A stretch of 64,000 nt of DNA from a virus, in the IMG/VR virus record IMGVR_UViG_3300045988_063953. The stretch is one strand, 5' to 3'. Below, in pieces: positions 2,167 to 59,697 of the stretch. Positions within the stretch are counted from its first letter, which is position 1. Every line of letters starts with the position of its first letter. The notes beneath the pieces were generated by a model. It was not told the DNA's origin. It ran no database searches and saw only the letters and a program-made list of their open reading frames with translations. The position numbers and the translations under genes were made by a program.

Positions 2167-2186
2167 CTCCCCCTTAAAAGAAATGA
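2167..2186 (+). repeat. GC-rich motif copy P (degenerate), CTCCCCC strand = +
   Basis: ctcccccttaaaagaaatga. Intergenic. Confidence 0.6.
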
Positions 2187-2188
2187 AT

Positions 2189-2196
2189 TATATTTG
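2189..2196 (+). promoter_or_regulatory. Bacteroidota-type -7 promoter box TATATTTG
   Basis: Exact match to TAnnTTTG. Lies in an intergenic region, with no ORF for about 220 nt downstream. Confidence 0.45.
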
Positions 2197-2198
2197 TG

Positions 2199-2397
2199 AA
2201 AGTAAAACGATAGATGTAGTGTACATCTTCGTAGCAGTGATGCTACTTATTGTATTGCCAATGATGATAATAAACTTGTAATCTCGTAACATAAGTGTTT
2301 TTAGTGTGAATACCCTCCTTGATTGGATTAGTTATCTTGGTAATTAGTTTTGTATTTAGGATAGTACTGATGTTACATTATATCTTCGTTTTACTTT
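2199..2397 (+). ncRNA. candidate structured non-coding transcript
   Basis: aaagtaaaacga (2199-2210) is perfectly complementary to tcgttttacttt (2386-2397). Internal hairpins are agatgta/tacatct and gtagca/tgctac. It begins just after the TATATTTG box. No family recognised. Confidence 0.3.
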
Positions 2398-2415
2398 TAC
2401 AAATTATAATTATAA

Positions 2416-2565
2416 ATGATTATGGGAGATATTGATGATATATATGCAGGTTGTAGTGTAGAAATTGATGGTTACTGTCTTAGTAATGATGTCGATGATT
2501 ATGACCTATATGGCGAAAAGATGATAGGAGATGATGATACTGAATTAGATATTCTCTTTGAATAA
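2416..2565 (+). CDS. small acidic hypothetical protein (49 aa)
   Basis: Hand translation gives MIMGDIDDIYAGCSVEIDGYCLSNDVDDYDLYGEKMIGDDDTELDILFE. Confidence 0.3.
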   Translation: MIMGDIDDIYAGCSVEIDGYCLSNDVDDYDLYGEKMIGDDDTELDILFE

Positions 2566-2777
2566 GTTAGCAATGTTTTTGGTCTGGTTTAATTAAATGT
2601 TGCTCGATGAGAAGTTAATCTTCTCCTTGTTATGACTAAGGATGATGTTATAACTCGTACTATATAATTCCAGTAATTGATAGAGTTGATTACGTATAAA
2701 CTCTTGATAGCTACGGTGGTAACGTTACAACCAATTATTATAAAGACGTTATTCTAAATACAATTAATAATAATAAT

Positions 2778-3110
2778 ATGAACAAAGAAAGTAAACTAAA
2801 GGCTCGTAAAACTAAACTTGGTAAATGTTTTAAAGAAGACCTTATTGATAGAATTATCAGAAAGGATAAAGAAGTGTCTAAACTTATTGCTAAGAATAAA
2901 ACTCTTAACAAAGAGTTGTTCGAGGCGGAAGAGTTGTTGAATGACACAAAGAAACATTATGAGAACAAAATAAAGTTCTTAAGGGTAGACTATGATGAGG
3001 TTGTAGAGAAGAACCTTAGTCTACAAAAAGGTTTCAAGACAGTATTGTTTGGACTATTAGTAATGAGTGCTCTTTTCGTGGTTACGCTGGTTGTAGCGTT
3101 AATTTCATAG
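2778..3110 (+). CDS. hypothetical coiled-coil protein with C-terminal membrane anchor
   Basis: 110-aa ORF with a K/E-rich heptad-like body and a C-terminal hydrophobic stretch (VLFGLLVMSALFVVTLVVALI). Terminator hairpin follows. Confidence 0.6.
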   Translation: MNKESKLKARKTKLGKCFKEDLIDRIIRKDKEVSKLIAKNKTLNKELFEAEELLNDTKKHYENKIKFLRVDYDEVVEKNLSLQKGFKTVLFGLLVMSALFVVTLVVALIS

Positions 3111-3143
3111 TATATATAATTAAAGTTTTTAGTTATTGTTATT

Positions 3144-6791: not shown

Positions 6792-7000
6792 TGAAATTTG
6801 ATGTTGGTCGTGCTTCTGATGGTTTAGGTTTTACTTCTATAGAAACAGTAGACATTAATTCTATTGAAGATCTTAATGCTATTGCTGAAAAATATAAAGG
6901 AGTTAATCCTAAAAATCATAATAGTTGGAAAGGTAATCATGAACTTATAATTGATTTTACTGCACATACTATAATAGTATATGATGGTTATGTAGAATGA
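6791..7000 (+). CDS. hypothetical protein
   Basis: 69-aa ORF that overlaps both neighbours by 1-4 nt. Confidence 0.5.
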   Translation: MKFDVGRASDGLGFTSIETVDINSIEDLNAIAEKYKGVNPKNHNSWKGNHELIIDFTAHTIIVYDGYVE

Positions 7001-7551
7001 ATATTAATCCATGTGATAATTGTCCTCTAAGACTATTCAATAGTAAGTGTCATAATCTACAAGGAGTCGGTAATCCTTTTATGGGTAAACTTATTATACT
7101 TCCTAATGTAGATTATGATGCTTATAAATATAAAGATATGAGTTTTAGTAAGCAGGTAGAAGTGTTAATGCGGCACATTACCTTTACGGGGGAGTTAGCG
7201 GACACCTACATTGTCCCTTTAATTCGTTGTAATGAAAGTCTTGGTTGTGATATAAATGATAATATTATTCGTAATTGTCAAAGATATCTTACAGAAGATG
7301 TTAAGACTTATGATTTTAAGCATATTATGCTATGTGGTAGTGCTGTAGATAGATTTCTACATACTTCTATACATAGTGTACTTAATAGTATTGTCGTTTC
7401 AAGTAATAATAGACTTTATTATGCTAATTATAGTCCTCTTATTAAATATGTAGATGAAAGTAAGTTTAAGACTTTTGTTAAGAAAGTTGATGATTTTCTT
7501 TATTCTGCAAGTAATAATGATTATAGTAAGTATGATATTGTTAATCTCTAA
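6997..7551 (+). CDS. uracil-DNA glycosylase-like protein (family 4-like fold, degenerate motifs)
   Basis: N-terminal CDNCPL, GVGNPFMGKLIILPN, YIVPLIRCN and IMLCGSAV resemble family 4 UDG motif spacing. It sits next to the polymerase, as in crAss-like phages. Confidence 0.5.
   Translation: MNINPCDNCPLRLFNSKCHNLQGVGNPFMGKLIILPNVDYDAYKYKDMSFSKQVEVLMRHITFTGELADTYIVPLIRCNESLGCDINDNIIRNCQRYLTEDVKTYDFKHIMLCGSAVDRFLHTSIHSVLNSIVVSSNNRLYYANYSPLIKYVDESKFKTFVKKVDDFLYSASNNDYSKYDIVNL
7175..7194 (-). repeat. GC-rich motif copy A
   Basis: acattacctttacgggggag. Inside the UDG-like CDS, read as FTGE. Confidence 0.85.
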
Positions 7552-9888: not shown

Positions 9889-11313
9889 ATGGAAGAACTC
9901 GGACAACTGTTTGAGATTGCTATTCAAGAATGGCGTGTTAAGAAAGGTGTAGGAACTGCTTTTGTTCCTCCTAAACTTAATAGTAAAGTTCTTGTTTTAG
10001 GCATTCTTCAACGAGTTTATAGTAGGTCGCCTACTTGTAGAACTCTAATTGTTGTTGAAACGTTTAATGATAGAATTGATTTAGTAGAGTTTCTAACTCA
10101 TCAAGAAAATGATGAAGAAAACAATGCTGAATTTAAGAAGTTACTTGATAGTAAACATATTAAAGTCTTAACTGCTGATTTTCTTAACAAAGCACTATTT
10201 GTAGAGAAACCTATGTTTTGTGTTCTTTATAAACTTAGTGAACTTGGCGGAAATATTAAAAGTAGTTTTCTTAGTAGTAAGTTTAGACTTGCTGTTATTA
10301 ATAGTCTTATGTCTACTTCTGAAGATACTGCTTTTCTTTATAAAGAAGCTCCTGTTCTTGATTGTTTCACAGATGAACAGATGCAAGCAGTTCGTGTTAG
10401 CACCCCCGTAAAGGGAATGTGTGTTGCACTTACTATTCCTGAAGATAGTGAAGATTATAAACTTCTTAAATATTACGATGAGTATGTTACTACAAGTCTT
10501 AATATATTTGGTACATTTGATTGTATTAAAGAGGCTTGTTATGGTAACTCAGCTTTGAATATCTCTGCTGCTCAAGTATGTAATAGAATTGCGTCTGATA
10601 ATGGTTGGAATGAATTACTTGATATGTCTATTGAATATAATAGGCAAATTGATGAATTATATAATCCTATCAGTATTAGAGAACGTGCTTCTATGACATA
10701 TGAAGTTATACGTAATAGACAAAATCTTGTCGCATCTAATAATGTTAAACTTGATGCAATACTTGAATATGTTAATGAACATAGTGATGAGAAAATTCTT
10801 ATAATTAGTAGACATAGTAGTTTTGCTAAAAAGATTACTGATTATTTGAATACAATGTCTGAAGATGTTATTTGTGGTGATTACCATAATAATGTCGAAT
10901 CAGTTCCTGCTGTTGATGTAGATGGAAATCCTATTTATATTAAGAGCGGAAAGCATAAAGGTGAAAGAAAAATGATGGCTGCTACTGCTCAAAAACGACT
11001 TAATGTTGAATTGTTTGAACGTGGTACTATTAGAGTTCTTTCTACTAATAATGCTCCTGATAAAGAACTTGATGTAAAAATAGACAGGATTTTAATTTCC
11101 TCTCCATTGTGTTCTGATATAAAGTCTTATCTGTATAGGCTTGACAAACTTTTGCTGCCACAGACGTTAAATGTGGCTTATCTATATATAAAAGGTACGC
11201 AAGAGGAAAAGGTAATACGAGATAGAGATTTAAGTATTAGTAGTGATAATATTAAAAATAGTGAAACAGATGATGTAGATAATAATTTTTCTGATTTTGT
11301 TATTGCAGATTAA
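9889..11313 (+). CDS. SF2 helicase-like protein (putative)
   Basis: RTLIVVETFNDR and a helicase-C-like ILIISRHSSFAKKI ... RVLSTNNAPDKELDV ... ILISSP. No clean Walker A seen. Confidence 0.45.
   Translation: MEELGQLFEIAIQEWRVKKGVGTAFVPPKLNSKVLVLGILQRVYSRSPTCRTLIVVETFNDRIDLVEFLTHQENDEENNAEFKKLLDSKHIKVLTADFLNKALFVEKPMFCVLYKLSELGGNIKSSFLSSKFRLAVINSLMSTSEDTAFLYKEAPVLDCFTDEQMQAVRVSTPVKGMCVALTIPEDSEDYKLLKYYDEYVTTSLNIFGTFDCIKEACYGNSALNISAAQVCNRIASDNGWNELLDMSIEYNRQIDELYNPISIRERASMTYEVIRNRQNLVASNNVKLDAILEYVNEHSDEKILIISRHSSFAKKITDYLNTMSEDVICGDYHNNVESVPAVDVDGNPIYIKSGKHKGERKMMAATAQKRLNVELFERGTIRVLSTNNAPDKELDVKIDRILISSPLCSDIKSYLYRLDKLLLPQTLNVAYLYIKGTQEEKVIRDRDLSISSDNIKNSETDDVDNNFSDFVIAD
10401..10420 (+). 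repeat. GC-rich motif copy B (CAC variant)
   Basis: cacccccgtaaagggaatgt. Inside the SF2 helicase-like CDS, read as TPVK. Confidence 0.75.
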
Positions 11314-14321: not shown

Positions 14322-15551
14322 ATGAAAAGAACACCTAACACAATTAGTCTTACAAAGGAATATATAGAAAGTAAAGTTTCACAAGAACTTATTATTTCTA
14401 AATATTTAGATATTCCTATTGAAGTAATACAAGAGTGTATTACTAAAAATACTCTTATTAAATCTGTATTTCGTGATGATGATGTTACAGGTAGTATGGG
14501 TATTCAATATAATGTGAAAGGTAGGTTAAAAGTTCGAGATTTTGGTGGTTTTGGCTTTTTTGAAGATGTTTATGGAGTAGTAGCTTATGTATTAAGTATT
14601 GCTTATGAACGTAAAATAGAAACTTCAAGGAAAGAAGATTTTTATTTTGTTCTTAAACATATTGCTTATACTTTTAGTGATATTATTGATGGTAAGGTTG
14701 TAGACCCTAACGTTGATGCTCTTATTGCTCACGCTCTGCATAAAGCTAAAACTAAGAAAGCAATTATCGAAGTAGTTCCTCGTAGTTGGACTAATAAAGA
14801 TAAAAATCTTTGGGCTAAATGGGGTGTATCTTTAGGTTATCTTAATACTCATTTTGTTATACCTGTTGAACAATATTATATCAATAGAGGAGTTGACACC
14901 AAACCAAAATATTATCATAAAGATAAAGACCCTTGTTATGCTTATATGCTTGGTCAAAATAGACAAGGTATTTATCTTATTAAACTTTATTTTCCTTTAA
15001 GAGATAGACATCATAATACTACTAAGTTTGTTACTAATTGTAATGTTCTTGAAGGTTTATATAACCTTGAACTTGATAATTATGATTATATTATTATTAC
15101 TAAAAGTAGTAAAGATAGACTTAGTATAGGTAGTCATTTATCTGCTCATCCCTTTTACGGGGGAGTGAGTGGCAAACTCAATATTGGAGTTATTAATCTA
15201 CCAAGTGAAAATTATAAACTTAAACAAAATGAATATGATTGGATAAAAAGAAAACTTAAAAATGATGGTATTATATTTAGTCTTTTAGATTTTGATGAAA
15301 CAGGTCGTCAAGGTGCTAAATATCTATATGATACTTATAACATTCCTTATATGTTTATAACTCGTGGAGAACTTGGACTTCCTGATTATGAATGTAAGGA
15401 TTTTGCTGAACTTTGTGAAAGATATACAGATAATGAAATTAATAATTTTATAAATGAAACTTTAACTTATGTCGAACTTAGATATAAAAGAGGGGATATG
15501 GGTAGTGCTGCCAGTATTGGCACAATGTATGACGATATGCTCCCGTATTGA
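14322..15551 (+). CDS. Toprim-like domain protein, putative DNA primase
   Basis: IIITKSSKDRLS ... LLDFDETGRQGAKYL resembles a Toprim DxD segment, but the conserved Glu is not obvious. Sits in the replication module. Confidence 0.45.
   Translation: MKRTPNTISLTKEYIESKVSQELIISKYLDIPIEVIQECITKNTLIKSVFRDDDVTGSMGIQYNVKGRLKVRDFGGFGFFEDVYGVVAYVLSIAYERKIETSRKEDFYFVLKHIAYTFSDIIDGKVVDPNVDALIAHALHKAKTKKAIIEVVPRSWTNKDKNLWAKWGVSLGYLNTHFVIPVEQYYINRGVDTKPKYYHKDKDPCYAYMLGQNRQGIYLIKLYFPLRDRHHNTTKFVTNCNVLEGLYNLELDNYDYIIITKSSKDRLSIGSHLSAHPFYGGVSGKLNIGVINLPSENYKLKQNEYDWIKRKLKNDGIIFSLLDFDETGRQGAKYLYDTYNIPYMFITRGELGLPDYECKDFAELCERYTDNEINNFINETLTYVELRYKRGDMGSAASIGTMYDDMLPY
15146..15165 (-). repeat. GC-rich motif copy C
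   Basis: tcatcccttttacgggggag. Inside the primase-like CDS, read as FYGG. Confidence 0.85.
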
Positions 15552-15936
15552 TAGAACAACTCGTTTTTCAGTTAATATCACTCATATTACTCCTAAAGAA
15601 GAAGATGAGCTTGATAAAGGAAAAACTATAACTATTAAAAGAGATAATATCTTTTATACTATAGACCCTAAGTCTATATTTTGTTATGGTGAAATTGATT
15701 TTCATACAAGTAGTGATGATTATTGGACTATTGAAGATTTTGATTGGCTTAAGCACGTAGATGATAGTGTTGCTATTCCATCAAGATTAAATTACGATGA
15801 AAGTACTGCTTATTGTCGAAAACGTAGCAATACTTATACTTGGTTTGATACTTTTAGTTCTGCTTCTATTGCTCAATATCTTCATTGTCGAATAGGTAAA
15901 CCTAAAAGAACTCTTATATTCTTAAAGAAATGGTAG
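15529..15936 (+). CDS. hypothetical protein
   Basis: I chose an internal Met of the 15469 track ORF to minimise overlap with the upstream gene. Confidence 0.45.
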   Translation: MTICSRIDRTTRFSVNITHITPKEEDELDKGKTITIKRDNIFYTIDPKSIFCYGEIDFHTSSDDYWTIEDFDWLKHVDDSVAIPSRLNYDESTAYCRKRSNTYTWFDTFSSASIAQYLHCRIGKPKRTLIFLKKW

Positions 15937-17650: not shown

Positions 17651-18007
17651 ATGAATTTAATAGCTTATGATGAAATAGTTGATAAAGTAGACAAAACCAA
17701 GACGTGGTTAGATGGCAAAACAGGTAATATATTTAGTAGAGAATTAGCTTTTAGAAAGTATCATACTTTTATTAAAAGATATAATCCTCAAACTAATAGT
17801 ACAACTATTTATATTGCAATGCTTGATAATAAAGCTGATACTAAAGTTGCTTATATTACTCGTAAAGATACCTATAATCGGATTTGTCTAAAGACTAAAC
17901 TGATTCTTAAAGAATTTAGTTTAAATAACGTCGATAAAGAAGTTAATATACGTCTTAATCATATAGAACATTCTGATGATGGTGATGTGTATGAAGTGTG
18001 TATTTAG
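17651..18007 (+). CDS. hypothetical protein
   Basis: 118-aa ORF. Motif copy D starts 16 nt after its TAG. Confidence 0.6.
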   Translation: MNLIAYDEIVDKVDKTKTWLDGKTGNIFSRELAFRKYHTFIKRYNPQTNSTTIYIAMLDNKADTKVAYITRKDTYNRICLKTKLILKEFSLNNVDKEVNIRLNHIEHSDDGDVYEVCI

Positions 18008-18022
18008 GGAGTGTTCCGATAC

Positions 18023-18042
18023 CTCCCCCGTAAAAGATATGT
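18023..18042 (+). repeat. GC-rich motif copy D
   Basis: ctcccccgtaaaagatatgt. Intergenic, 16 nt after a stop codon. Confidence 0.85.
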
Positions 18043-18655: not shown

Positions 18656-20140
18656 ATGAGTTCAACAAGTAGAAAACATTATATTGTTGATTTTCACGAA
18701 GGTTTACATCATTTTGTACATAGTGCAGACCTTGTAATTCACAATGAACGTAAACATTGTTCTTATGTTGGTTTTGGTAACTTTCTTTATACTATTAAAA
18801 CTCGACTTAAAGATATTAGTGATGTCACCGACCCTTATCGTTATCATATTGGTAGAGGCGATTATTGTATTGCTGTTATAGATAGAGAAAAGAAGAGAAT
18901 TTGTATTTCTGATAGACATTATCATACTTATTATCTGAAACAAGCTGTTCCTGATGATTGGGAGGTTACTTATGTTAATGGTTCTGTTAAGGCTTTTTAT
19001 CTTCTTGGTAAAACTAATAATTATTATTTTTGTAAAGCTGTTTGTGAATGGATTGTAGATAAAGTAGTATCTGACTATTCAGATGAATATGCTGTTCTTT
19101 ATAAATATAAGCAGACTATTAATAAAGATATTTGTGTTCCTAATATTGGTAATGAACATAAAGAAACTATTAAACTTTTGTTAGATAAGTATAATCTTGC
19201 AGAGTTTTGGTTTTATGAAAAACCTATTACTGATAGTGTGTTTGTTGATTATTATCAAGGTTGGCGTAAAAAGTTCTTTAGTTTAACTAAAGTTCCTACT
19301 ATTGAAGAAATTTATGAAAATAGAATCTTCTCTAAGGACGAAAAACTTTATATTATTCAACGTAAGTTTTATACTGATTTCTGTAGAGGATTTGGTATTT
19401 CTTTTAATGATGTAGTTAAACATTGGGAAGATAAGGATGGTATGTCTGTTCTTATGCCTGTTCTTGTTAATAAGTATGAACATCTTAAACCTAATTGGAA
19501 AGAAGCTATTATTGCTAATGCAAGACAACAAGATGATTGTGGTGAAAACTTTGTAATTAGAAGTAATGCTGAATCTAAAGAAAATAAAGATAAAGCAATT
19601 TTTGATTATATTACTAAGAATTACGGAAGTAATGATTTACTTACTGCTTGGAGAGAGAATGACTTTAAAGTTCCTTTTACTGTAACATATAAACAGTATC
19701 AAGTTACTAATCATACTACAAAAGGTCGTTATATTACAGGTAGATGGATTGATAGAACAGAAAGAATTTATAGTCTTCCTTTCTATTATGTTCAACTTAA
19801 ATATGATGTTGACAAAGAAATTATTACAACATCTAAAGGTGCTAAGGTTAGACTTAATGATGCTATTCTTCTTTGGAAGTTATTCAAACAAACGATTAAT
19901 CAATGTAGTAAAGTTAATAATAAATATAATAATTATATAGAAATTCATTTAGCTGACAAAAATATTAAATGTGGACTTTATCCTGTTAATGGTATATATT
20001 TCAATATTAAAAATAAAAATAAGTATAATGGAGTTGGCTATTATAGTTGGAATGTAGTTGTCGGTTGTCATACTATTTGGATTGACGATTTTATTAACTT
20101 TATTAAGTATTATAAATTACAAAAATATTTTCCTAATTAA
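18656..20140 (+). CDS. hypothetical protein (494 aa)
   Basis: Long ORF. A TATATTTG box ends 28 nt upstream. No motif recognised. Confidence 0.75.
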   Translation: MSSTSRKHYIVDFHEGLHHFVHSADLVIHNERKHCSYVGFGNFLYTIKTRLKDISDVTDPYRYHIGRGDYCIAVIDREKKRICISDRHYHTYYLKQAVPDDWEVTYVNGSVKAFYLLGKTNNYYFCKAVCEWIVDKVVSDYSDEYAVLYKYKQTINKDICVPNIGNEHKETIKLLLDKYNLAEFWFYEKPITDSVFVDYYQGWRKKFFSLTKVPTIEEIYENRIFSKDEKLYIIQRKFYTDFCRGFGISFNDVVKHWEDKDGMSVLMPVLVNKYEHLKPNWKEAIIANARQQDDCGENFVIRSNAESKENKDKAIFDYITKNYGSNDLLTAWRENDFKVPFTVTYKQYQVTNHTTKGRYITGRWIDRTERIYSLPFYYVQLKYDVDKEIITTSKGAKVRLNDAILLWKLFKQTINQCSKVNNKYNNYIEIHLADKNIKCGLYPVNGIYFNIKNKNKYNGVGYYSWNVVVGCHTIWIDDFINFIKYYKLQKYFPN

Positions 20141-20141
20141 A

Positions 20142-20496: not shown

Positions 20497-20516
20497 ACAT
20501 TTTCTTTACGGGGGAG
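20497..20516 (-). repeat. GC-rich motif copy E
   Basis: acattttctttacgggggag. Intergenic, upstream of thyX. Confidence 0.85.
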
Positions 20517-20539
20517 GTAGTGTTAAACTTATAATTGAT

Positions 20540-25236: not shown

Positions 25237-25248
25237 GTTGCTCTATAA

Positions 25249-27184: not shown

Positions 27185-27191
27185 TTATAGT

Positions 27192-43700: not shown

Positions 43701-46700
43701 TTTGCTATAAACATCAGTAAACTTTTTATGCTTTTTACCATCAACTACTTCTTCTTCAATAGCAGACTGTCTATTCTGAGCATCAATAACACCTGCAATA
43801 GCATCAAGTTTATTATTACGTTTAGTAAGAAGTTTATTATATAATGGATTCTTTCTAATATCATTAACAATAGCTTTAAGAATATCCTCTTCCACACCTT
43901 GAGCTTTATAAGTATTATAAAGCTCATCAGCAAGTTCATCCATAGTAATCTTATCTTTATGAGCTTTAATAGTAGGAATAACAGCTCCATTAATTACTAC
44001 TTTAGCATCATTAAGAATCTCTTTACCAGAATCAGCAACAGCATCTTCATTAGAGTTTTCTGATACCTCCCCCGTATAAGAAATGTGAGATTGCTTACCA
44101 GTATCTCCTTTAAGATGTTTTTCTAACCATTGTTTTTGAATATCATTAAGTTGTATCCCACGAACTTCATCATTACCAATATCATCACCTTTTTGATAAG
44201 CAAAGAAAGTTCCGTTATCATTAACAACTATTTCCCCAACAACAGGTTCACCGTTAATATTACCTTTAATAGGTTTCTTAATCTTATATTTGAAAACTCC
44301 AAAGTCAGTTTCATTCTTACTAATAGTATCAATAAGAGCAGTTTCTTGTTGTTCTTTAATACTCTTATCTCCTTGAGGAGCTTCTTCAGAACTTTGTTCT
44401 TCTACAGGAGCATCACTTTTTTTACCTATAAGACCTTTACTAACAACTTCAAAATCACCATTATCTTTACGTTTAACAATAGGATTTTGTTTAACTTCAG
44501 CATTATTGTCAATAACCGAAGCATCTTTTTCAACATCAAATAAAGCAGTGTTATTAAACAAATGTTCAACACCTACTTTACCTTTAAGTTGAATTTCTTC
44601 AGTACCATCTTCTTTAGCTACAGTTTCTATGTTAGTTTTACCAGTAGAATCAATATCACCTTTATCATTAAAACGAATACTTTTAGCAGGAGTTTCTTCT
44701 GTTTTTGGCTCGGTCGGTTCAGTGGTTGGCTCGGTGCTTTCCTCGCTGCTTACTTCGTCCGTAGTGCCGTTCTTTTGGCTTTCCTCGCTTTCAGTTTCAT
44801 TTGTCGATTGATTATTCGACTTTTCATTTTCAGCCGTTTCTGAGGGATTTTGATTTGTGGTAGTATTTTTCTTCTTTTGCTCCTCCTTTTGGAACTGCAA
44901 TATCTCTTCTAAGTCCAACACATTTGTCAAACTTTCATAAAGTTGATTATTGTTAGGATTAGCAAAATTATAAACAGTAATTGCTTCATCAAACTTTTCT
45001 TTATCTTCTTTGTCATAAAGTTCAGTAATCTTATCAAACTCTTCATTATCTCCAATACGTCTACTTGCAAGAGCAGCTTCAAGACTTTCTCTACCATATT
45101 TACCAAGAATATCTTTGAAAGTATCAGTAGCTTTAGCAAGTTTAGCTCTACGCATTTCATTAAGAGTATTGTTAAGTACTCCTATTTCTGTTTTAAGTTC
45201 ACTAACAGAACTAACTACTTGAGAACGATTTTGATTAATTTGATAACCATATTGATAAGCTCTATTGTAAGACTCACCTATGGCATCTTCTTTGCTGCCA
45301 TACTCTTTAAGTTCTTCAAGAATGTCATTAGTACTACGATTGAGTTTATTATAATCAGTAGCAAATTGTTTTGCATCTTCTTCTGCTAATTGAAGAGTTT
45401 TATCATCAAGTTCAAATATATTTTGAACACCTCTGAAATCACCTTTGTCAATAGCATCTGCAATAGCTTTTTCTTCTTCTTGAAGAGCAAGTCTTCCAGC
45501 TTCATCATCTTTAGTTAAAAGACTTTGTCTTACAAGATTAGTCTTATTTCTTGCAAAGAATATTGGAAGCATACTTCTAACATCATTCTTATCATAAAGA
45601 CTTTCATGTAAAGACTTAATTTGTTTATCAATACTTTCGAGAGCTAATTGACCACCAATAGTAGGATTATCTTTAAGAGATTGTTCTACTTCTGCTTTAC
45701 TCTGATATAAGTCAGTTAAAGCCCAAACATTAGCACGAGCTTCAAGTGCTCTTTCATAATCTTCAACTTCACCACTAAGTTTACCATCTTCTTTAGCTTT
45801 AGCTATAAGAGCACGATAAATATTCAGTTCTTCATTACGAGCAGTTTCTAAAGTTTTAATACCAAGACGATTATATGCATTATTTGTAGCGATCGTTTGA
45901 AGCATTTCAAAAGGAATAACTTTACCATCTTCAACAGCATCAGCAGAAATACGATTAAGATGAGTAATTTCGTCATTATATTCTTTTTCTACTTGTGCTA
46001 TTTTATCAACAGCTTGTTGTTGAAAAGTATGACTATCTTCTTCACTAATAATACCTTTAGCTACCATAACTTGTCTGACATTATCATCAGACATAAATTC
46101 TTTAAGCAAAGAACTATTACCATTGTTCATTGCCTCTAAAGACATATCAGTAAGAGTTTTGTTAATTACTTGTTGCTTAAAAGTAGCTTGTTCAGCTTTA
46201 GTAAGTTCTCTATCATCAGAAGTATCAAAAGGATTACGAGCTTGTTCAATTCTTTTAAGTTGTTGTCCAAGTAATTGAAGTTTAGCATCTCTACCTTGAA
46301 TTTCGGCAATCTTACGTTTAACTTCTGGAAGTTCATCATTCATAGACCAAGAAGGAGCATTACTATTATTTTCTCCTGTAGTAGCATTTTCACCTGTTTT
46401 AGCCTTATCATTCTTATGTTCAAGGTTATATTTTAGCTGATTAAGTTTACTACCACCTACTTCAAATACAACACCACCAAGAACACCCCAAAACATACTC
46501 TCCCAAAGTTGAGGACTTTGAGCATAACTTTTAAGACGAGAATCAAAAGAACTACCGTTAGAAGTACCTAATAATACTCTACCAGTATCCATAGCCTCAA
46601 GCTGAGAAATAGTATTAACACCTTCTTCAAGACCTTCACCTAATTGAGCACCAACAGCAAGTTTACTCTTAAAAAGAAAATCAGTAGCATGGTCTTTAGT

Positions 46701-47825
46701 CTTAGTCCAAAGATTCTCTTTGACTTCTTTACCAGCTTGTCTTGCAGCATCTCTAAGAATTTCACGTTGAGCTTTATTAGCAGCACCTCTACCGATATCT
46801 TCCATAGCTTTACCACCAAAAGCATTCTTAAGAGCATACATTTGAATAACATCAGAAATAGTATTAACATAGTTATTTCTAAAGTCTTCATCTGCTGAAT
46901 TACGAGCAATAGCTTTAGCTGCTTCATCTCTATTGTTGTAATCTACGTCTTGTAGTTTATCTTGATGATTTTTAACCCATTGAGCATATTCAGCATCAGA
47001 CATATTACCAAGAGTATTTTTAGCCTCATTATACATATCAGAATAAACACCTCGTGCTTCCTGATAATTTTCCATTGTACGTTGAAGTAAAGCATTAACT
47101 CCCTTTTCAATAGCCATATTAGTCATCTGAAGAACTTTAGGATTATCAGCTAACTTAGCTACTTTAGCAAGAGAAGAAAACTTTTCTAAAGACCTAATAC
47201 CAGTACGAGTAATAGCACCTATATTACGTGCTTTACCAATATAAGATAAACCTTTAACTACACCACTTGAAGGAATAAGAAGAGTAAGAGAACTTGCAAT
47301 ACTTGGAAGATTACTTGCCCACCAACCTGCATTAAGCAAACCTCCATTACCTATATTAACTCCATCTTCAACATATATTGGAGCAAACTCTTTGAACTCT
47401 TCTTGTTTCTGCTCAAGAAATTGACTTACAGGATTAGAATAATCATGGTCAGAAAGACCTGTAAGTTGACCTACTGCATCAACTAAATCACTAAGTCCTT
47501 TAACAGTTCCAAGACCTATTTCACTAACAACAGTTTGAGCAAGAGCATTACCAAACTTTTTAAAGTTACCTTGAGCACGTGCTAACTCGTTATTAAGATT
47601 CTTACTTACAAGATTAGGTGTAATACCTTGTTCTAAAAACCTTTCAGGATTATCCATCTTCCATCGCATATCAGCACTACCAGCAATGAAATCAGCTCCA
47701 GCAGACTGAACTGTTGGAGCTGTAATACTTTGAATAACTTTAGGTTCTTTATTTTTTTTTGATTTAGGCTTATAATTAGGATTTGGTACAAAGCCTCCAC
47801 CAAGAGTATCATCATTTATAACCAT
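40710..47825 (-). CDS. giant virion/ejection-type protein with HExxH motif and acidic low-complexity linker
   Basis: 2371-aa ORF. LIHEQLHRIL is encoded at about 41388-41402. Also carries a TEPTTEPTEPKTEETP linker. Confidence 0.7.
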   Translation of the reverse strand: MVINDDTLGGGFVPNPNYKPKSKKNKEPKVIQSITAPTVQSAGADFIAGSADMRWKMDNPERFLEQGITPNLVSKNLNNELARAQGNFKKFGNALAQTVVSEIGLGTVKGLSDLVDAVGQLTGLSDHDYSNPVSQFLEQKQEEFKEFAPIYVEDGVNIGNGGLLNAGWWASNLPSIASSLTLLIPSSGVVKGLSYIGKARNIGAITRTGIRSLEKFSSLAKVAKLADNPKVLQMTNMAIEKGVNALLQRTMENYQEARGVYSDMYNEAKNTLGNMSDAEYAQWVKNHQDKLQDVDYNNRDEAAKAIARNSADEDFRNNYVNTISDVIQMYALKNAFGGKAMEDIGRGAANKAQREILRDAARQAGKEVKENLWTKTKDHATDFLFKSKLAVGAQLGEGLEEGVNTISQLEAMDTGRVLLGTSNGSSFDSRLKSYAQSPQLWESMFWGVLGGVVFEVGGSKLNQLKYNLEHKNDKAKTGENATTGENNSNAPSWSMNDELPEVKRKIAEIQGRDAKLQLLGQQLKRIEQARNPFDTSDDRELTKAEQATFKQQVINKTLTDMSLEAMNNGNSSLLKEFMSDDNVRQVMVAKGIISEEDSHTFQQQAVDKIAQVEKEYNDEITHLNRISADAVEDGKVIPFEMLQTIATNNAYNRLGIKTLETARNEELNIYRALIAKAKEDGKLSGEVEDYERALEARANVWALTDLYQSKAEVEQSLKDNPTIGGQLALESIDKQIKSLHESLYDKNDVRSMLPIFFARNKTNLVRQSLLTKDDEAGRLALQEEEKAIADAIDKGDFRGVQNIFELDDKTLQLAEEDAKQFATDYNKLNRSTNDILEELKEYGSKEDAIGESYNRAYQYGYQINQNRSQVVSSVSELKTEIGVLNNTLNEMRRAKLAKATDTFKDILGKYGRESLEAALASRRIGDNEEFDKITELYDKEDKEKFDEAITVYNFANPNNNQLYESLTNVLDLEEILQFQKEEQKKKNTTTNQNPSETAENEKSNNQSTNETESEESQKNGTTDEVSSEESTEPTTEPTEPKTEETPAKSIRFNDKGDIDSTGKTNIETVAKEDGTEEIQLKGKVGVEHLFNNTALFDVEKDASVIDNNAEVKQNPIVKRKDNGDFEVVSKGLIGKKSDAPVEEQSSEEAPQGDKSIKEQQETALIDTISKNETDFGVFKYKIKKPIKGNINGEPVVGEIVVNDNGTFFAYQKGDDIGNDEVRGIQLNDIQKQWLEKHLKGDTGKQSHISYTGEVSENSNEDAVADSGKEILNDAKVVINGAVIPTIKAHKDKITMDELADELYNTYKAQGVEEDILKAIVNDIRKNPLYNKLLTKRNNKLDAIAGVIDAQNRQSAIEEEVVDGKKHKKFTDVYSKAADALFDAYLSDRDGIVRKDKNGVERYYFSFQDLLNWCNEVSETPDTATGIYGYLKQYILDKSKNKDYLYRIVDEAALDAETIFDNKKEIIQTLNADRHRLNIKQLVELYQKEDRTDELNELLEALDNVKVGDRVSIEVRNNKLHIRTNGTLIGALPVPIVSKEIDAYTVKNDGVIYDINVNNGDSTLKDTLKRWVYEENEDASEVNDILYSLAFDKTLTEKDRKKLYKKFLNNKEVKALVDKGVIVDPTDIDIVAEGFAKLYRYIAKSYNQVAGTDLEYKLADVLSNSIDDYFDKLLNSYNAISAIAKFPQGYEATVDYVTSGILTKQVESNEEYLNPEVEKQANTVKDAVADSLMDRFEFGFIPTGQNAYGERTSGIVYGDGGSQVDFPGTPGNTFGMIKDQNGVPQLVRAYPVRFGDKRLSKDVVKIQKAIKTEFANLLEDFYAHKEGSYERLRDFVNKVFSNYNRTISRGFMSDNGITIRDFSKGNGFNIAIDGQPFSISIGNSIYRGERQYQTAVRQGEAKGIFDKNGENKDAAIKMFEQFVDRSAIGIHFDAMQNAINENYPLTGFMSRNEKGEFTVTIPNSKTGKPTVVSAKSYKDFLIDNNLVKINLKKTKDINGKETNFTRRNDKTQVGNQTLYVRFDAVKTPETINGNTAEQKTSGDARVEKVVQLLEKGDKREHQGNAIATMILGNSVKNLLKPINGYSILPKTIIFDKDLNSRAGYERTNALYNVTKDTITVGTKWLDMLRNPDTKQEALRKLIHEQLHRILAQDGNAKYIEQVRAIRDEFIEANKRDGLEEGKGIRRYEKIDKNDTIALEEFLVESLTSKELIDRLNAIDAKVDKGSKKKSLFQKIVDTLCKIFGWDVRKGSLYEKEIVALGDILNTTKKEVAKEGTLDFKDESSDTSPVKEITEETTSPETTKEEPPKVYDSEDSFDNEFDMDVDFDDVMRSNIDEDIRTPTIKSFIDSIPIENRAKMREQIDNGELQTYCK
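40952..40971 (-). repeat. GC-rich motif copy K
   Basis: taatttcctttacgggggag. In the 2371-aa CDS, read as SPVK. Confidence 0.85.
44067..44086 (+). repeat. GC-rich motif copy L (GTATAA variant)
   Basis: ctcccccgtataagaaatgt. In the 2371-aa CDS, read as YTGE. Confidence 0.8.
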
Positions 47826-51020: not shown

Positions 51021-53021
51021 TTACCAACTTGTTTGCACCACACCCATATCACGAAGTCGACGACGATAAGTGTTACCAAGTTTACCGTAAGCACTATTAA
51101 GTATTTCTTTATTTTGTTTATAATTAAGAACTTTTCTATCATAAGCCTTTCTACGTTCAGCAGTTACAGTGGGGTCTTCACCATTAATAACTTCAAATGT
51201 TCCAGGATCAGTTAAGTTCTGATTATAAGCATTACCAAAAATACCCATTATAGTATCTTGGTCTAAATCAACACCACTATTCATCATACGATAAGCAGTA
51301 CCATTTTCAGATGCTGCAAGAGCATAACGCATACCTTGTATATCTTCATATCTCTGAGAAGCTTGTCCAACAAAGTTAGAAACAGCTCTACCAAGACCTT
51401 GTAGAGTCATAACTTTAGCTTGTGTCTTAGCATTATCTTTAGCATTCTGAATATCAGCAACTTTATTAGCCCAATCAGATTGTATCTTAAGATTCTGTGC
51501 AGCAACTTCTTGTTGATTAAGAGCGTCTTTATTGATAAGCTCAGTTTCAACATTTTCTTTTTGAGCATAAAGTTTATCTATATCATCAGTTGCTTTAGTA
51601 TTCAGAAGATTACGTCTATTCAAAGCAGCAACAGAACTTGCAGTACCAGCATCAATATCACCAAAAGCTCTATTACGAGCACGATTAACTTCTTCTTCTT
51701 GAGGAGCTACATTATAAGTTGTTTTAAGCTTAGCAGCTTGAAGAAAACCGGGACGTTCTGGAAGATGAATACTATTAGCACCTTTACTATTAATAATACC
51801 TGTTGCAATACTACCAAGAATATCACCACCTAAACCAATCCAATCACCAGTTCTAATAGCCATACCTGACTTATTACCTGTAGTATTAATAGTTTGAGAT
51901 GGAATAGTAGCAGGTTGAGGCTGAGGTTGAACTACTTTCTTAGGAGGTGTTACAACAACTTCGTCCATAGTTACAGATCGACTTGGGTCAAATATACTTC
52001 CAGGACGAAAATCAATAGGTGGGTCATCATAAGAACCAAAAGGTGAAGTATTAAATAAACGTCTACGAGTAAAATTATACATACCACCAACTCGATGTTT
52101 AGGACGACCATAGTGCATTACCTTTACGGGGGAGCTATTATTAAATGTACCATCATCATTAAGTCCAGCTATTTTCTTAAATCTCTCTTGAGCAGCAAAA
52201 ACTTCATCTTTATTAGCACCAGAAAGAATTGCTTCTACAGGACTAATACCATTAAGTATAGGAGCACCACTAAAGATTCTAAGTTGATTCTTTTTAATTT
52301 GAGCAATCTCACCACCTTCAGCTTCAAGTTCTTTATTACCAACAGAGATACCAATACCAGTATTTCCACTTTCATTAATATCTTCATGGGAACTCCCCCG
52401 TAAAAGAAATGTGCCATTACCGACCTTTACAGCATCTCCACCATCAGTAATAACAGGTTGTTCTCTAAGTTTGCGACGACTACCAAGTTTAGCTTGTGAA
52501 TTAAATTGTCTTTGATAATCATTATTAACTTCTTCAGTACCTGTTAGAGCTTGACTAAGTTGAGATGCTTCTTGAACAGTATTGTTATAATTTTCAACTC
52601 TGCGCTGTCTTTCAGCAGCACGCTTTTTAGCACTATTACTAAGAAGACTTCCAATAATAGAACTTGCTAAACTTGCACCAACAGCAATAGCAGTTCCAAC
52701 AAATGCTTTAGGTCTATTACCTTTAATACTTCTTCTACCTCCAAGTTTATACTCAGTGTTATATTGAGTATTATAATCTTGATTAGTAGCAAGAGTTCCT
52801 TTAAGTTGAGAACTCATACCAGTAGCTTCACGTAAAGCATTTTGATATTCTTGAAGTCTATTTCTACGCTCTTCAAGTTTACGATTACCATCATTCTGTA
52901 TAGCAGTAGAAGCAACTGTACTTGCAACAGAACCTGCAGCACTAATAATAGAAGGTAATAGAGCCCCAAGATTAGCTCGAGGTCTATTACCAGAAACAGT
53001 AATTCTTTTTTTATTTGTCAT
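51021..53021 (-). CDS. hypothetical virion-block protein with internal tandem duplication
   Basis: 666-aa ORF. Two modules of about 90 aa (hydrophobic segment, helical segment, KLGGRR/KLGSRR) lie near the N-terminus. Confidence 0.75.
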   Translation of the reverse strand: MTNKKRITVSGNRPRANLGALLPSIISAAGSVASTVASTAIQNDGNRKLEERRNRLQEYQNALREATGMSSQLKGTLATNQDYNTQYNTEYKLGGRRSIKGNRPKAFVGTAIAVGASLASSIIGSLLSNSAKKRAAERQRRVENYNNTVQEASQLSQALTGTEEVNNDYQRQFNSQAKLGSRRKLREQPVITDGGDAVKVGNGTFLLRGSSHEDINESGNTGIGISVGNKELEAEGGEIAQIKKNQLRIFSGAPILNGISPVEAILSGANKDEVFAAQERFKKIAGLNDDGTFNNSSPVKVMHYGRPKHRVGGMYNFTRRRLFNTSPFGSYDDPPIDFRPGSIFDPSRSVTMDEVVVTPPKKVVQPQPQPATIPSQTINTTGNKSGMAIRTGDWIGLGGDILGSIATGIINSKGANSIHLPERPGFLQAAKLKTTYNVAPQEEEVNRARNRAFGDIDAGTASSVAALNRRNLLNTKATDDIDKLYAQKENVETELINKDALNQQEVAAQNLKIQSDWANKVADIQNAKDNAKTQAKVMTLQGLGRAVSNFVGQASQRYEDIQGMRYALAASENGTAYRMMNSGVDLDQDTIMGIFGNAYNQNLTDPGTFEVINGEDPTVTAERRKAYDRKVLNYKQNKEILNSAYGKLGNTYRRRLRDMGVVQTSW
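52115..52134 (-). repeat. GC-rich motif copy M
   Basis: gcattacctttacgggggag. In the 666-aa CDS, read as SPVK. Confidence 0.85.
52393..52412 (+). repeat. GC-rich motif copy N (consensus)
   Basis: ctcccccgtaaaagaaatgt, identical to copy F. In the 666-aa CDS, read as LLRG. Confidence 0.9.
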
Positions 53022-57272: not shown

Positions 57273-57278
57273 ATCTTA

Positions 57279-58028
57279 TTATCCTCTTGGTCTAAATGTA
57301 CTATTATAAAAGAAATTATTCCAACCAGTATTATCTTTACTAATCTTAATCTTAACAGAAGCAGCAGCTCTACTCTTAAGACTATTCCATTGATGAAATG
57401 GATTAATAACTTGATTAGGAGAAGTTAGACTATATACTGGATGATGACTTCCTCTACTAAGATACTTGAACAAACAATACCAAGCAAGAGCTTCAAGAAG
57501 AAGACCATCGTCATAAATATAAGGAACATCACAATCAAAATAATCATCGTGATAAGTAGCAACCTCGTAAGTTTCAACATCTATAGAATCTGTTTCAAAA
57601 TTAAGTTCAATACAATTACCTTGTAGAACAAAACCTTTATCTTGATAACCATTACCAATATTGACAACTTTCATAAAGTTTTTACCACTTTTATTACTAT
57701 CATCAATAACGGCAATTTCCTGTTGTGGAACAGAACCTACATTTCTATTACCACAACAGGAATTGTTACTATTAATAGGTTGTATTTCACAACCATTCTT
57801 ATCATAAACTTTAATCTCAGTTGCATTAAGTTCACAAGGAAATAATGCAAGACGCTCACTAACTTCAAGTGTTCTACGTTTTCGTTCCATTGGTAGAACC
57901 TTTAGTTGAGATAGAGCATCAATAGTCCAAGCAGCAACTCGAGGAATCCAATCACTTTCACTAAGATTGAAATCGTTATCAATCTTACCTATTAGTCGCT
58001 GAATAGTTATGTTTGTCTTGATTTTCAT
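57279..58028 (-). CDS. hypothetical virion-block protein
   Basis: 249-aa ORF that overlaps the upstream gene by 44 nt. Confidence 0.65.
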   Translation of the reverse strand: MKIKTNITIQRLIGKIDNDFNLSESDWIPRVAAWTIDALSQLKVLPMERKRRTLEVSERLALFPCELNATEIKVYDKNGCEIQPINSNNSCCGNRNVGSVPQQEIAVIDDSNKSGKNFMKVVNIGNGYQDKGFVLQGNCIELNFETDSIDVETYEVATYHDDYFDCDVPYIYDDGLLLEALAWYCLFKYLSRGSHHPVYSLTSPNQVINPFHQWNSLKSRAAASVKIKISKDNTGWNNFFYNSTFRPRG

Positions 58029-58932
58029 TTCTTATAAATTTAGCATATAAAAGTTTATCAGCTTTATTACATAATGCAAGTTTAGTTCTAATATCAACAT
58101 CTAACTCACAAATCTTTTTAGGGTCATTATCACACATTTCAAGTAAATCATCATGAGTAGTACCTCTAAGTTTAGCTGCTCTATAATCAGAACTTTCAAA
58201 TTCTAAATCATACTTAAATTTACATTGAGGATAAAGTAAAGGAATCTCATAATAATACTCATCATTCTTATAAATACGATAATCAACAGCATTATATTCA
58301 ACTCCTATTCGTTTACAATATTCAGCTTCAGCTTTATTCCAAAGATGTTTACCTTCATCAATAAATCTTTCTTTGTTCTTTCTTGTAGCTTCAAAATCAA
58401 GCATTGGATAACCCCGATGTACCTTGCATCTATTAATACATAGATAACCAATACGATTACCAAATTGATAAGCCTCACCATCAAGTATCATATGTTTATG
58501 AACACCATAATAAAAATCTTTTATTATTTGAGTATAATCTTTATACTTAATAGAAAGAACTCTTTCAGCAAGATGAATTTGCTTTTCAAGATTATAAATA
58601 GCTTTATGAAGTTTAGCAAGACTATAAAGGTCATAAAGTTCCATAACCATAACATGATTATCTTTCTTATTAAGAAATAGTCTTTTAGCTATTCGATAAA
58701 ACTCTCCATTATCATAAGCATTATTCCTAAACTCAATAATATTGTTAAGGTCTAAATTATAATGCTCTTTATAATACTCTACATTATTACAAATATCATC
58801 ATATAATTCAGCAGCTTGAACCAATAGTTTTTGTCTTTCTTCAGTACATCTATCATACTTTATTTGGAAAGCTCTTTGACAACTATTGTAATAGTCTTTT
58901 CTGTTTGTTGGTATATCTTTTATAGCAGCCAT
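57985..58932 (-). CDS. hypothetical virion-block protein
   Basis: 315-aa ORF. Confidence 0.7.
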   Translation of the reverse strand: MAAIKDIPTNRKDYYNSCQRAFQIKYDRCTEERQKLLVQAAELYDDICNNVEYYKEHYNLDLNNIIEFRNNAYDNGEFYRIAKRLFLNKKDNHVMVMELYDLYSLAKLHKAIYNLEKQIHLAERVLSIKYKDYTQIIKDFYYGVHKHMILDGEAYQFGNRIGYLCINRCKVHRGYPMLDFEATRKNKERFIDEGKHLWNKAEAEYCKRIGVEYNAVDYRIYKNDEYYYEIPLLYPQCKFKYDLEFESSDYRAAKLRGTTHDDLLEMCDNDPKKICELDVDIRTKLALCNKADKLLYAKFIRNENQDKHNYSATNR

Positions 58933-58935
58933 ATT

Positions 58936-59616
58936 TTATCCATTATATTTAACACCGTCGGGAACTTCATCAGTTTCACGAACATTACTAAGTAAATCTC
59001 TTTTATAAATAATATCTTTAATTTTACCAATCATATCTTCTGAAAGAAGAAACTCATTATCACCAAAAGTAACATCCCAATGGTCAACTTCTCCATTAGC
59101 TTCCATAATCTCTGTAGGATGTTCAAAAGCACCTTCAATAATAACATTATCTAAATTAAACTTTTGATTATTACTTGGAAATATATAAATATAACCTTTT
59201 ATGTAATCATAACAAGCACCACAAAGACCAGGTACATGTTTACGAAAACGAGCAGATGTTTCTTTGATAAAAGGAAACTCTCTATTATATTGCCAACCAA
59301 CAGAACTTACTCTGTCAAAAGGAAGATTATTTGTAAGACGAATTGGAGTAGGAACTTTAGTAGTACTACGTTTAATCTTTCCAACACCAGTTACTTCTTT
59401 TGGATAATCTATATCTCCGTCATTTACTTCGATAAGAGAAACTCTAAATCTTTGAGTAAGTCCTTTATCAACATATCCGTGATTCTCATAACTCTGTCGT
59501 ATGAGTTCATTACGAGTATGCAAGATAAGTACTCGAAGATTCTCTCTAAGAACATGATTATTAGGTTGTTTTAGAGAATGAGCAACTTCACTTACAAGTT
59601 GATTAATACTTGCCAT
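58936..59616 (-). CDS. hypothetical virion-block protein (start trimmed to MASINQLVSEV)
   Basis: The 75 N-terminal codons of the track ORF cover a promoter box and the motif hairpin, so I prefer the internal Met at 59616. Confidence 0.6.
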   Translation of the reverse strand: MASINQLVSEVAHSLKQPNNHVLRENLRVLILHTRNELIRQSYENHGYVDKGLTQRFRVSLIEVNDGDIDYPKEVTGVGKIKRSTTKVPTPIRLTNNLPFDRVSSVGWQYNREFPFIKETSARFRKHVPGLCGACYDYIKGYIYIFPSNNQKFNLDNVIIEGAFEHPTEIMEANGEVDHWDVTFGDNEFLLSEDMIGKIKDIIYKRDLLSNVRETDEVPDGVKYNG

Positions 59617-59648
59617 ATTATTAACATTAAAAATTAGATTTATTCTAA

Positions 59649-59668
59649 CTCCCCCGTAAAGGCAATGT
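59649..59668 (+). repeat. GC-rich motif copy O
   Basis: ctcccccgtaaaggcaatgt. In the leader region of the late operon. Confidence 0.85.
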
Positions 59669-59677
59669 GTAAAGCTA

Positions 59678-59697
59678 ACATCTCTTTTACAGGGGAG
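59678..59697 (-). repeat. GC-rich motif copy O' (degenerate, inverted partner of O)
   Basis: acatctcttttacaggggag. Its core lies 25 nt from the core of O and forms an imperfect hairpin with it. Confidence 0.65.

Follow-up and report, generated by a model that had tools for sequence, protein, structure and literature searches.

We analyzed a 64,000-nucleotide stretch of viral DNA (IMG/VR record IMGVR_UViG_3300045988_063953; hereafter, the window) in which 17 copies of a GC-rich motif of about 23 nt are dispersed on both strands. The source is a crAss-like phage of the Intestiviridae family, sharing only ~77% DNA identity with its nearest relatives in the databases. The window has a G+C content of 30%; genes up to ~26.5 kb are encoded by the + strand and those beyond by the - strand. 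A search of both strands for CTCCCCCGTAAA, allowing up to two mismatches, returned 18 matches, against a mean of 0.91 and a maximum of 3 in dinucleotide-preserving shuffles. All 17 copies listed in an earlier reading of the letters alone (the original prediction) were recovered, with their coordinates and strands (9 + and 8 -), and the worry that the motif might be just as common in shuffled DNA can be set aside. The 18th match, at 49889(+) (CTCCACCGTTAA), has two mismatches and unrelated flanks, and a weight matrix of 28 columns derived from the 17 copies gives it less than 10 bits; we treated it as chance. The copies themselves score 30.6-43.8 bits and the matrix detected nothing else in the window at 10 bits or more, and because there are no intermediate-scoring copies, the motif family is sharply bounded. 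As the original prediction had noted, conservation continues past the core on both sides: the conserved stretch covers ~23 nt (tg.TAaCTCCCCCGTAAAgGaAATGt) and includes ~16-18 informative positions, those that vary do so mostly by transition, and flanks beyond ~23 nt are not conserved. Copies 25249 and 52393, described earlier as identical over 20 nt, prove to be identical over 22 nt. The motif is a real and non-random signal at the sequence level.

Each copy, named here by the position of its core and its strand, was mapped through its translated flanks onto four relatives: cr271_1 (Obtuvirinae, pig), cr8_1 (Obtuvirinae, human), Carjivirus communis (the prototypic crAssphage, p-crAssphage; Crudevirinae), and the cultured crAss002 (Churivirinae). 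Copy 2167(+) (2164-2186; core CTCCCCCTTAAA, one mismatch) is intergenic and lies 7 nt downstream of a hairpin with a 9-bp stem; the corresponding site in a close relative, IMG/VR contig L001 (89.5% identical), reads CTCCCCCGTAAA. Compared with that contig, the window also carries a 170-bp insertion (2567-2736) in the long non-coding stretch downstream of the copy. Copy 7183(-) (7175-7197) is antisense in open reading frame (ORF) 6997-7551, the orthologue of a gene annotated as uracil-DNA glycosylase in relatives; its position and relative orientation are shared by cr271_1 and cr8_1. Copy 10401(+) (10398-10420; core CACCCCCGTAAA) is sense in a helicase/SNF2-like ORF (9889-11313), with orthologous copies in cr271_1, cr8_1, and crAss002. 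The primase gene contains copy 15154(-) (15146-15168) in antisense, where it encodes FYGG; orthologous copies occur in all four relatives, and hence in all five genomes including the window. Next come two intergenic copies, 18023(+) (18020-18042), whose core starts 16 nt past the stop of ORF 17651-18007 and which has orthologous copies in cr271_1 and cr8_1, and 20505(-) (20497-20519), which lies between ORFs 20058-20486 and 20540-21547 and is without a counterpart in the relatives. These two frame a window-specific module (18656-20486) comprising a 494-aa ORF without a family match and a 142-aa ORF with a DUF1599 domain ("nucleotide modification associated domain 1," E = 6e-8); the module may be a DNA base-modification cassette, and cr271_1 and cr8_1 have unrelated small genes at this location. 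Copy 25249(+) (25246-25268) is again intergenic, its core starting 13 nt past the stop of a DUF932 gene (24172-25236).

Two giant - strand ORFs follow, 27192-40625 (4477 residues) and 40710-47825 (2371 residues), which are orthologous to the crAss virion RNA polymerase fusion protein and to the protein associated with it; the GenBank annotation of the larger protein's orthologues in cr271_1 and cr8_1 as "nuclear pore complex-like protein" is misleading. Copy 27173(-) (27165-27187) closely follows the stop codon of the giant virion RNA polymerase gene and contributes its 3' half, as the 5' arm, to a 15-16-bp hairpin; orthologous copies are present in cr271_1 and cr8_1. Three copies fall within the 4477-residue polymerase ORF: 30950(+) (30947-30969), antisense and encoding LYGG, for which the cr271_1 copy is ~26 bp off the mapped position in a poorly conserved stretch; 34420(-) (34412-34434), sense and encoding TSPVKE, with orthologous copies in cr271_1 and cr8_1; and 37529(+) (37526-37548), antisense and encoding FYGG, whose alignment column also holds a copy in cr271_1, cr8_1, and p-crAssphage. 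The 2371-residue ORF contains 40960(-) (40952-40974), sense and ~250 nt ahead of its stop, and 44067(+) (44064-44086; core CTCCCCCGTATA), antisense, with an antisense copy in cr271_1 at an equal distance (3.76 kb) from the gene start. Copies 52123(-) (52115-52137; sense) and 52393(+) (52390-52412; antisense) form a back-to-back pair, 270 bp apart, inside ORF 51021-53021, and the latter has an orthologous copy in cr8_1. Finally, 59649(+) (59646-59668) and 59686(-) (59678-59700; core CTCCCCTGTAAA) are the left and right arms of a face-to-face pair upstream of the crAss ring-protein gene. This pair folds as a hairpin (-9.6 kcal/mol, z = -3.3) and is kept in cr271_1 and cr8_1, the right arm being conserved in the latter.

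Two assemblies extend the window's genome, L027 to 8.6 kb upstream of it and L029 (100% identical over 13 kb) to 7.2 kb past its end. They contribute copies at window-equivalent coordinates -7281(+), -3732(+), -2237(-), and 68907(+). In L029, the gene called upstream of ORF 60914-61219 (L029 4385-9997) has a product of 1870 residues and continues beyond the end of the window. The corresponding 815-aa ORF of the window (61223-63670), for whose product an exact match on record was not found, is probably the truncated C-terminal part of this gene, or else reflects an internal start codon.

Non-coding sequence makes up 5.8% of the window and holds 7 of the 17 copies (binomial p = 2.5e-5), the core of intergenic copies often lying 8-16 nt past a stop codon. 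The other 10 are within ORFs, 4 in sense and 6 in antisense (hand count, with copy 20505 taken as intergenic). Half of these ORF copies reside in the 20.6 kb of uninterrupted coding sequence formed by the two giant ORFs, where they occur at the usual interval. Spacing thus overrides coding: non-coding sequence is preferred, yet copies are written into giant genes at the usual interval. The original prediction held that the motif ignores gene strand and gene boundaries; gene strand indeed has no bearing on its orientation, but gene boundaries do have some influence, as the non-coding excess shows. The four sense copies share the frame xxC TCC CCC GTA AAr, encoding (S/T)PVK, and the antisense copies fall in three frames.

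Fifteen of the 16 neighboring pairs in the window alternate in orientation (label-permutation p = 6e-4), as do 18 of 20 when the outside copies are added (p ~ 2e-4, binomial, by hand). The strict alternation originally described therefore stands, at 15/16, within the window but is broken 3.7-7.3 kb upstream in the same genome, where the + copies at -7281 and -3732 are adjacent; these are further copies of the kind that the original prediction had said would count against strict alternation. It is looser in relatives (12/17 pairs in cr271_1, 19/24 in cr8_1, 21/31 in p-crAssphage, and 19/26 in crAss001, a phage of another family that is discussed below), where a number of the breaks coincide with one missing copy each that the window still has.

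The deeper regularity consists of two evenly spaced sets, one per strand, with copies 5-8 kb apart, that look independent of each other. In the window, + copies are spaced 5.7-8.3 kb apart and - copies 5.4-8.0 kb apart with one 11.2-kb gap, giving a coefficient of variation (CV) of 0.18 for same-strand spacing; the corresponding values in relatives are 0.38-0.51. Same-strand spacing is evener than with permuted orientation labels in all five genomes compared (p <= 0.0014; the window, cr271_1, cr8_1, p-crAssphage, and crAss001). Irrespective of strand, copies are also spaced more evenly than random (CV 0.57-0.74), the evenness being far stronger per strand. We consider the two sets independent in appearance because - copies sit at variable fractions (0.34-0.97, by hand) of the interval between flanking + copies, and two even lattices of similar period interleave, which would account for the apparent alternation. 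The suggestion that neighboring copies are paired sites for a looping or genome-organizing protein gains no specific support here, as this variable placement fits independent lattices better than fixed pairs. With crAss002 included, same-strand copies in the six genomes are never less than 1.5 kb apart. Opposite-strand copies approach one another to within 26-270 bp, and all 13 pairs less than 300 bp apart are inverted (2^-13 = 1.2e-4, by hand), 10 of them face-to-face.

The motif extends well beyond the window. Five Intestiviridae genomes each contain 17-32 copies of a lineage-specific variant with the common core CCCCGTrrArG, dispelling the possibility, raised in the original prediction, of its absence from all relatives. 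These variants are CTCCCCCGTAAArGAAATGT in the window (17 copies in 64 kb), CTCCCCCGTAGAAGArATGT in cr271_1 (~18 copies), tagCC[C/G]CCCCGTAAAAGGTATGTA in cr8_1 (~25 copies), gACyCCCCGTrGAGGATGGA in p-crAssphage (32 copies), and ttCCCCCrTAAAGGAGyg in crAss002 (19 copies). Each genome has one variant common to all its copies, and this concerted change implies co-evolution with a single trans-acting reader. Among 185,579 bacterial and archaeal species genomes (one each), a 19-mer of the motif has three chance-level matches, none of them in Bacteroidales. Moreover, Bacteroides is the host of both crAss002 and crAss001, phages of different families whose motifs also differ. Since Bacteroidales lack the 19-mer and the motif tracks the lineage of the phage, not its host, a phage-encoded reader is probable; a host-genome signal of the Chi or uptake type was rejected on the same absence. 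We conclude that the motif probably acts in cis as a strand-specific DNA signal, with a phage protein as its reader.

In crAss001 (MH675552, first 100 kb), 27 exact copies of the 9-mer CTCCAGAAG are spread along the genome, and a 10-mer containing it is ~190-fold over expectation. Their orientations run -++-++-+-++-++-++-++-+-+-++, with never two - or three + in succession, and their same-strand spacing is evener than under label permutation. This 9-mer seems to be a shorter counterpart of what the Intestiviridae carry (compare CTCC-CCCGT-AGAAG in cr271_1). The motif is not universal in Crassvirales, as is evident from two other genomes of that order considered below. Some copies in p-crAssphage, crAss002, and cr8_1 are extended upstream by a GC-rich CGCTTCGCTCCGCT, which is absent in the window and cr271_1. 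Ahead of a subset of motif copies lie either GC-rich repeats of the CGCT(T/C)CG type or short perfect hairpins whose loops have 3 nt (for example, GGCAC-TAC-GTGCC and GAGTGC-TAC-GCACTC). Such composite sites are located at 28077-28210, 44928-44970, and 95745-95905 in p-crAssphage, at 86186-86230 in the crAss002 record, and at ~62520-62580 in the cr8_1 record (locus L013 ~15520-15580). The GC-rich stretch is common to several subfamilies, and the p-crAssphage composites include the regions upstream of both repL genes.

Individual positions of the motif are conserved as well. The original prediction had proposed checking whether orthologous genes hold the motif at the same positions, and for 10 of the 17 window copies they do, with a counterpart in another genus at most 40 bp away and in the same relative orientation; among the copies mapped to the four relatives, there is no case of the opposite orientation at an equal place. 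An orthologous copy is held by all four relatives in the primase gene, by three in the SNF2-like helicase gene, and by three for one of the copies in the virion RNA polymerase gene. When four giant polymerase proteins are aligned, the motif falls in poorly conserved, gap-rich linkers in which only the motif-encoded residues are conserved (LYGG for antisense and SPV(K/E) for sense copies). A relative that lacks a copy shows no deletion at that place, and this pattern of substitution without an insert led us to reject an inserted or mobile element. None of 37 primase homologues departs from the motif-encoded residues Y279 and G280, and conservation of G281 among them is >=90%. Because only motif-encoded residues are conserved within variable linkers, selection acts on the DNA, and we read these alignments as showing a signal of the DNA itself that point substitutions wrote into coding sequence and that selection has kept there. 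Both the reality of the motif and selection at the DNA level are well supported.

We also compared the copies with familiar classes of nucleic acid signals. Single copies fold no better than shuffled sequence, and Rfam covariance models gave no match overlapping a copy even at E <= 10. A tRNA scan detected no tRNA genes in the 64 kb and none at the copies; cr271_1 and cr8_1 carry a tRNA-Gln beside the end of the giant polymerase gene, and cr271_1 additionally has tRNA-Lys and tRNA-Leu. Sigma-70-type promoter matches are at or below shuffle level and have no consistent link to the copies. In an intrinsic terminator scan, only copy 27173 overlaps a terminator-like hairpin; the pair 59649/59686 folds too. 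Apart from these exceptions, most copies are without promoter or terminator context, as originally stated, and we judge the accompanying exclusion of a restriction-modification site, a CRISPR array, and an ordinary promoter or terminator to be right. A switch of replication or transcription direction at the copies was likewise ruled out, as no skew step exists at 109 pooled sites.

If the reader is encoded by the phage, a candidate is the product of the gene at 14322-15551 (+), which is assigned to phrog_12622 ("DNA primase"). This protein has no Pfam or PDB sequence match, and it has >1,300 metagenome homologues, none with a precomputed Pfam domain. The best matches of its AlphaFold model (predicted local distance difference test score 70.7) are the TOPRIM primases T7 gp4 (primase domain) and T4 gp61, with E = 3e-5 to 5e-4. 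T7 gp4 and T4 gp61 carry at their N-terminus a zinc ribbon that reads the template; at that place, the model of the phage primase has three short helices and a single cysteine, and hence no zinc ribbon. Given the missing zinc ribbon in the model, it is plausible that the phage primase has a different, possibly longer-range, module for template recognition.

We tentatively favor the possibility that the motif copies are fixed start sites of discontinuous DNA synthesis, read by this zinc-finger-less T7-type primase. Both parts of the proposal, that the primase reads the motif, a link drawn from plausibility, and that DNA synthesis starts at the copies, are mechanisms that we infer. The primase would recognize the ~23-nt sequence on a single-stranded template and lay down a G/C-rich primer, and with the invariant C5G/G5C core, the hybrid of primer and template would be unusually stable for a genome of 30% G+C. 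Whichever way a fork moved, it would then meet a priming site on its lagging-strand template within ~7 kb. As forks would run in both directions, each strand would need its own evenly spaced set of sites. Discontinuous synthesis fits best because the signal is unstructured, asymmetric, ~23 nt long and phage-specified, and recurs on each strand every 5-8 kb whatever the genes. Okazaki fragments of T7 measure 1-6 kb.

Dedicated priming signals on opposite strands are known from IncQ plasmids, and the ssiA and ssiB signals of RSF1010/R1162 are the best functional analogy for the start sites proposed here. They are inverted, lie on opposite strands and are used by the element's own primase, RepB', as proposed here for the phage primase. 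They differ in being a single pair in oriV, each ~40 nt long with a hairpin, whereas the crAss motif comprises ~23 nt and 17-32 unstructured copies genome-wide. The fold of RepB' is also unlike that of the phage primase, which is T7 gp4/DnaG-like, and a RepB'-type primase tying the motif to the IncQ signals was rejected for this reason. Under the start-site proposal, face-to-face pairs would be origin-like points at which synthesis starts on both strands. Two of the three tightest face-to-face pairs of p-crAssphage are in long non-coding regions directly upstream of its two repL genes, and an origin has been predicted beside one of these pairs (PMC10983915).

Several points weigh against priming at fixed sites. 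No orientation switch is seen around the predicted p-crAssphage origin, with 8+/9- and 10+/5- copies in the genome halves, and pooling 109 sites revealed no step in GC or AT skew (p > 0.3), although lagging-strand priming need not make one. In some genomes, one strand goes 11-18 kb without a copy. A comparable motif is missing from phi14:2, whose record annotates a DNA primase, and from the first 50 kb of cr55_1 (Suoliviridae). Known DnaG/T7-type primases recognize 3-5 nt, not ~20 nt, and known long priming signals, such as IncQ ssiA/ssiB and those of the G4 type, are hairpins, whereas the motif is unstructured. The reader could also be any other phage DNA-binding enzyme.

The closest rival, viable and the other of our two leading readings although we regard it as unlikely, takes up the strand-specific nick sites suggested in the original prediction: the copies would be sites of single-strand nicking by a phage nickase, staggered on both strands at about one per 7 kb per strand. 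Strand-displacement synthesis might enter at such nicks, with RecT annealing and ligation as later steps. Nick sites of T5-, phiKMV-, and tf-like phages are conserved, asymmetric consensus sequences of 9-20 nt that are dispersed irrespective of coding, lineage-specific and of obscure role (PMC3517423), and the motif shares these properties. In size and asymmetry, it matches the consensuses TACT/RTGMC of tf and CGACxxxxxCCTA/CTCCGG (~20 nt) of phiKMV-like phages (PMC3517423); TA-CTCC is common to the phiKMV consensus and the motif, which may be chance. An ATP-dependent ligase is encoded in the replication module, RecT and Gam-like proteins are annotated in relatives, and staggering between strands would leave the duplex intact. 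However, all described nick systems are one-stranded (PMC3517423), whereas the crAss copies form interleaved sets on both strands, in the window and in all relatives alike, and some face each other at 26-120 bp, where nicking would effectively create double-strand breaks at several internal places. There is no conserved nickase candidate: the annotated HNH genes of relatives vary in position, and ORF 17651-18007, considered as an HNH nickase near the ligase, has no HNH match in Pfam or PHROGs. Finally, the role of nicks is obscure even in T5, so nicking explains little of the spacing. A joint formulation, in which each strand is hard-wired with initiation points every ~7 kb that are used either by long-recognition Okazaki-type priming or by nick-driven strand displacement with RecT annealing and ligation, strikes us as possible but doubtful.

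A reading that we find rather improbable treats the copies as orientation-independent binding sites, one per ~3.5 kb, for an architectural, condensing, roadblock, or regulatory protein, with neighbors inverted only because a single-strand-annealing recombinase selects against direct repeats. The evenness of overall spacing, the invariable inversion of close pairs and the RecT-type recombinase gene annotated in relatives are all compatible with this, and the stoperators of Cluster A mycobacteriophages provide a precedent, being dispersed, asymmetric 13-bp sites in 20-35 copies, some intragenic. Stoperators follow the direction of transcription, whereas the motif occurs in sense and antisense on both gene arms. 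Avoidance of direct repeats is a weak argument, since T7 retains 17 direct copies of its 23-bp promoter, and same-orientation neighbors only 2.1-3.5 kb apart are tolerated in p-crAssphage and in the window's genome upstream. In addition, orientation is strictly kept at orthologous sites, and evenness is much stronger per strand than overall.

Orientation would matter for a polar, Chi-like control sequence that switches off or modifies a phage or host translocase or nuclease once this enzyme, having entered from any DNA end, encounters a copy in the right orientation, thereby marking self DNA and limiting resection, a role to which we attach a low probability. Both orientations would be needed, since ends can arise anywhere in a circularly permuted genome, and this would account for an evenly spaced set per orientation. 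Chi (RecBCD/AddAB), KOPS, and Ter are orientation-dependent signals that recur every few kilobases, as the motif would be, and its spacing resembles that of E. coli Chi (~5 kb). The phage encodes a superfamily 1 RecD/PIF1-like helicase, a PD-(D/E)XK nuclease and a Gam-like inhibitor are annotated in relatives, and bacterial genomes lack the motif, which is what one would require of a self marker. Known Chi sequences, in contrast, are 5-8 nt long, owned and over-represented by the host chromosome and skewed with replication direction, whereas the motif has ~16-18 informative positions, varies with phage lineage rather than host and, scanned as a 19-mer, has only the three chance matches noted above in 185,579 species genomes. 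No phage-encoded machine is known to recognize Chi.

Less probable still is a transcription or RNA signal, whether a promoter or terminator for the virion or host RNA polymerase or complementary RNA segments that pair, with local pairs serving as terminator or processing hairpins. The motif recalls the promoters of the T7 group, which are asymmetric sequences of ~23 bp present in ~17 copies per genome at conserved positions and changing in concert between related phages. Intergenic face-to-face pairs fold as stable hairpins, copy 27173 past the virion RNA polymerase gene belongs to a 15-16-bp hairpin, and the variable motif positions differ mostly by transitions. T7-group promoters, however, point in one direction and precede genes, whereas the motif is divided about evenly between strands and lies mostly in ORFs (10 of 17 copies, 6 antisense), the antisense copies being conserved across genera; intergenic copies point with or against the flanking genes. 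Promoter- and terminator-like matches are not tied to most copies, and no skew step marks the sites. In phi14:2, early transcripts made by the virion polymerase have no upstream motif in common, and middle and late genes use the host polymerase (bioRxiv 10.1101/2020.03.07.982082).

Junctions left by recombination or module exchange, or a tiny mobile element of which the copies would be the footprint or the ends, are barely credible readings despite the variable module at 18.0-20.5 kb framed by 18023(+) and the window-specific 20505(-), because only 4 of 54 synteny-gap edges relative to cr271_1 lie within 100 bp of a copy (~3 expected), protein alignments show no insertion, flanks are unconserved past ~23 nt, and positions are orthologous across subfamilies; the third hypothesis of the original prediction thus largely falls away. 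REP/BIME/REPIN or MITE-like repeats were also rejected, as most copies are single, unstructured and within ORFs, again with no insertion in protein alignments.

The motif fits none of the known classes considered here (nick sites, ssi signals, promoters, Chi, stoperators, and REP/MITE elements) while partly resembling several. Literature searches brought up no previous account of it, either by the strings of the motif and its variants, which matched only unrelated primer sequences, or by nicks or repeats in phages of the crAss type. What sets the motif apart is that each strand carries its own evenly spaced set, the two being interleaved, and that this arrangement is conserved in a phage family to which the most abundant virus of the human gut belongs. 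No viruses are more abundant in the human gut than crAss-like phages. How they replicate their DNA is explicitly called unknown in a review (PMC10136315), and neither this review nor the report of p-crAssphage as a phage-plasmid (PMC10983915) mentions a dispersed motif.

The motif therefore offers a concrete handle on crAss replication, and the 19 copies in the cultured crAss002 permit direct testing. It is also a ready, lineage-specific marker for classifying crAss genomes. The selection acting on it constrains the protein sequences of the primase, helicase, and virion RNA polymerase, such that some conserved amino-acid motifs of crAss proteins, including LYGG and SPVK, are by-products of selection at the DNA level. 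If fixed initiation by priming or nicking, as in the joint formulation above, is true, crAss-like phages of the Intestiviridae, the prototypic crAssphage among them, would replicate or maintain their genomes by a mechanism not described before, using a signal that is conserved between subfamilies and strong enough to be written into essential coding sequence.

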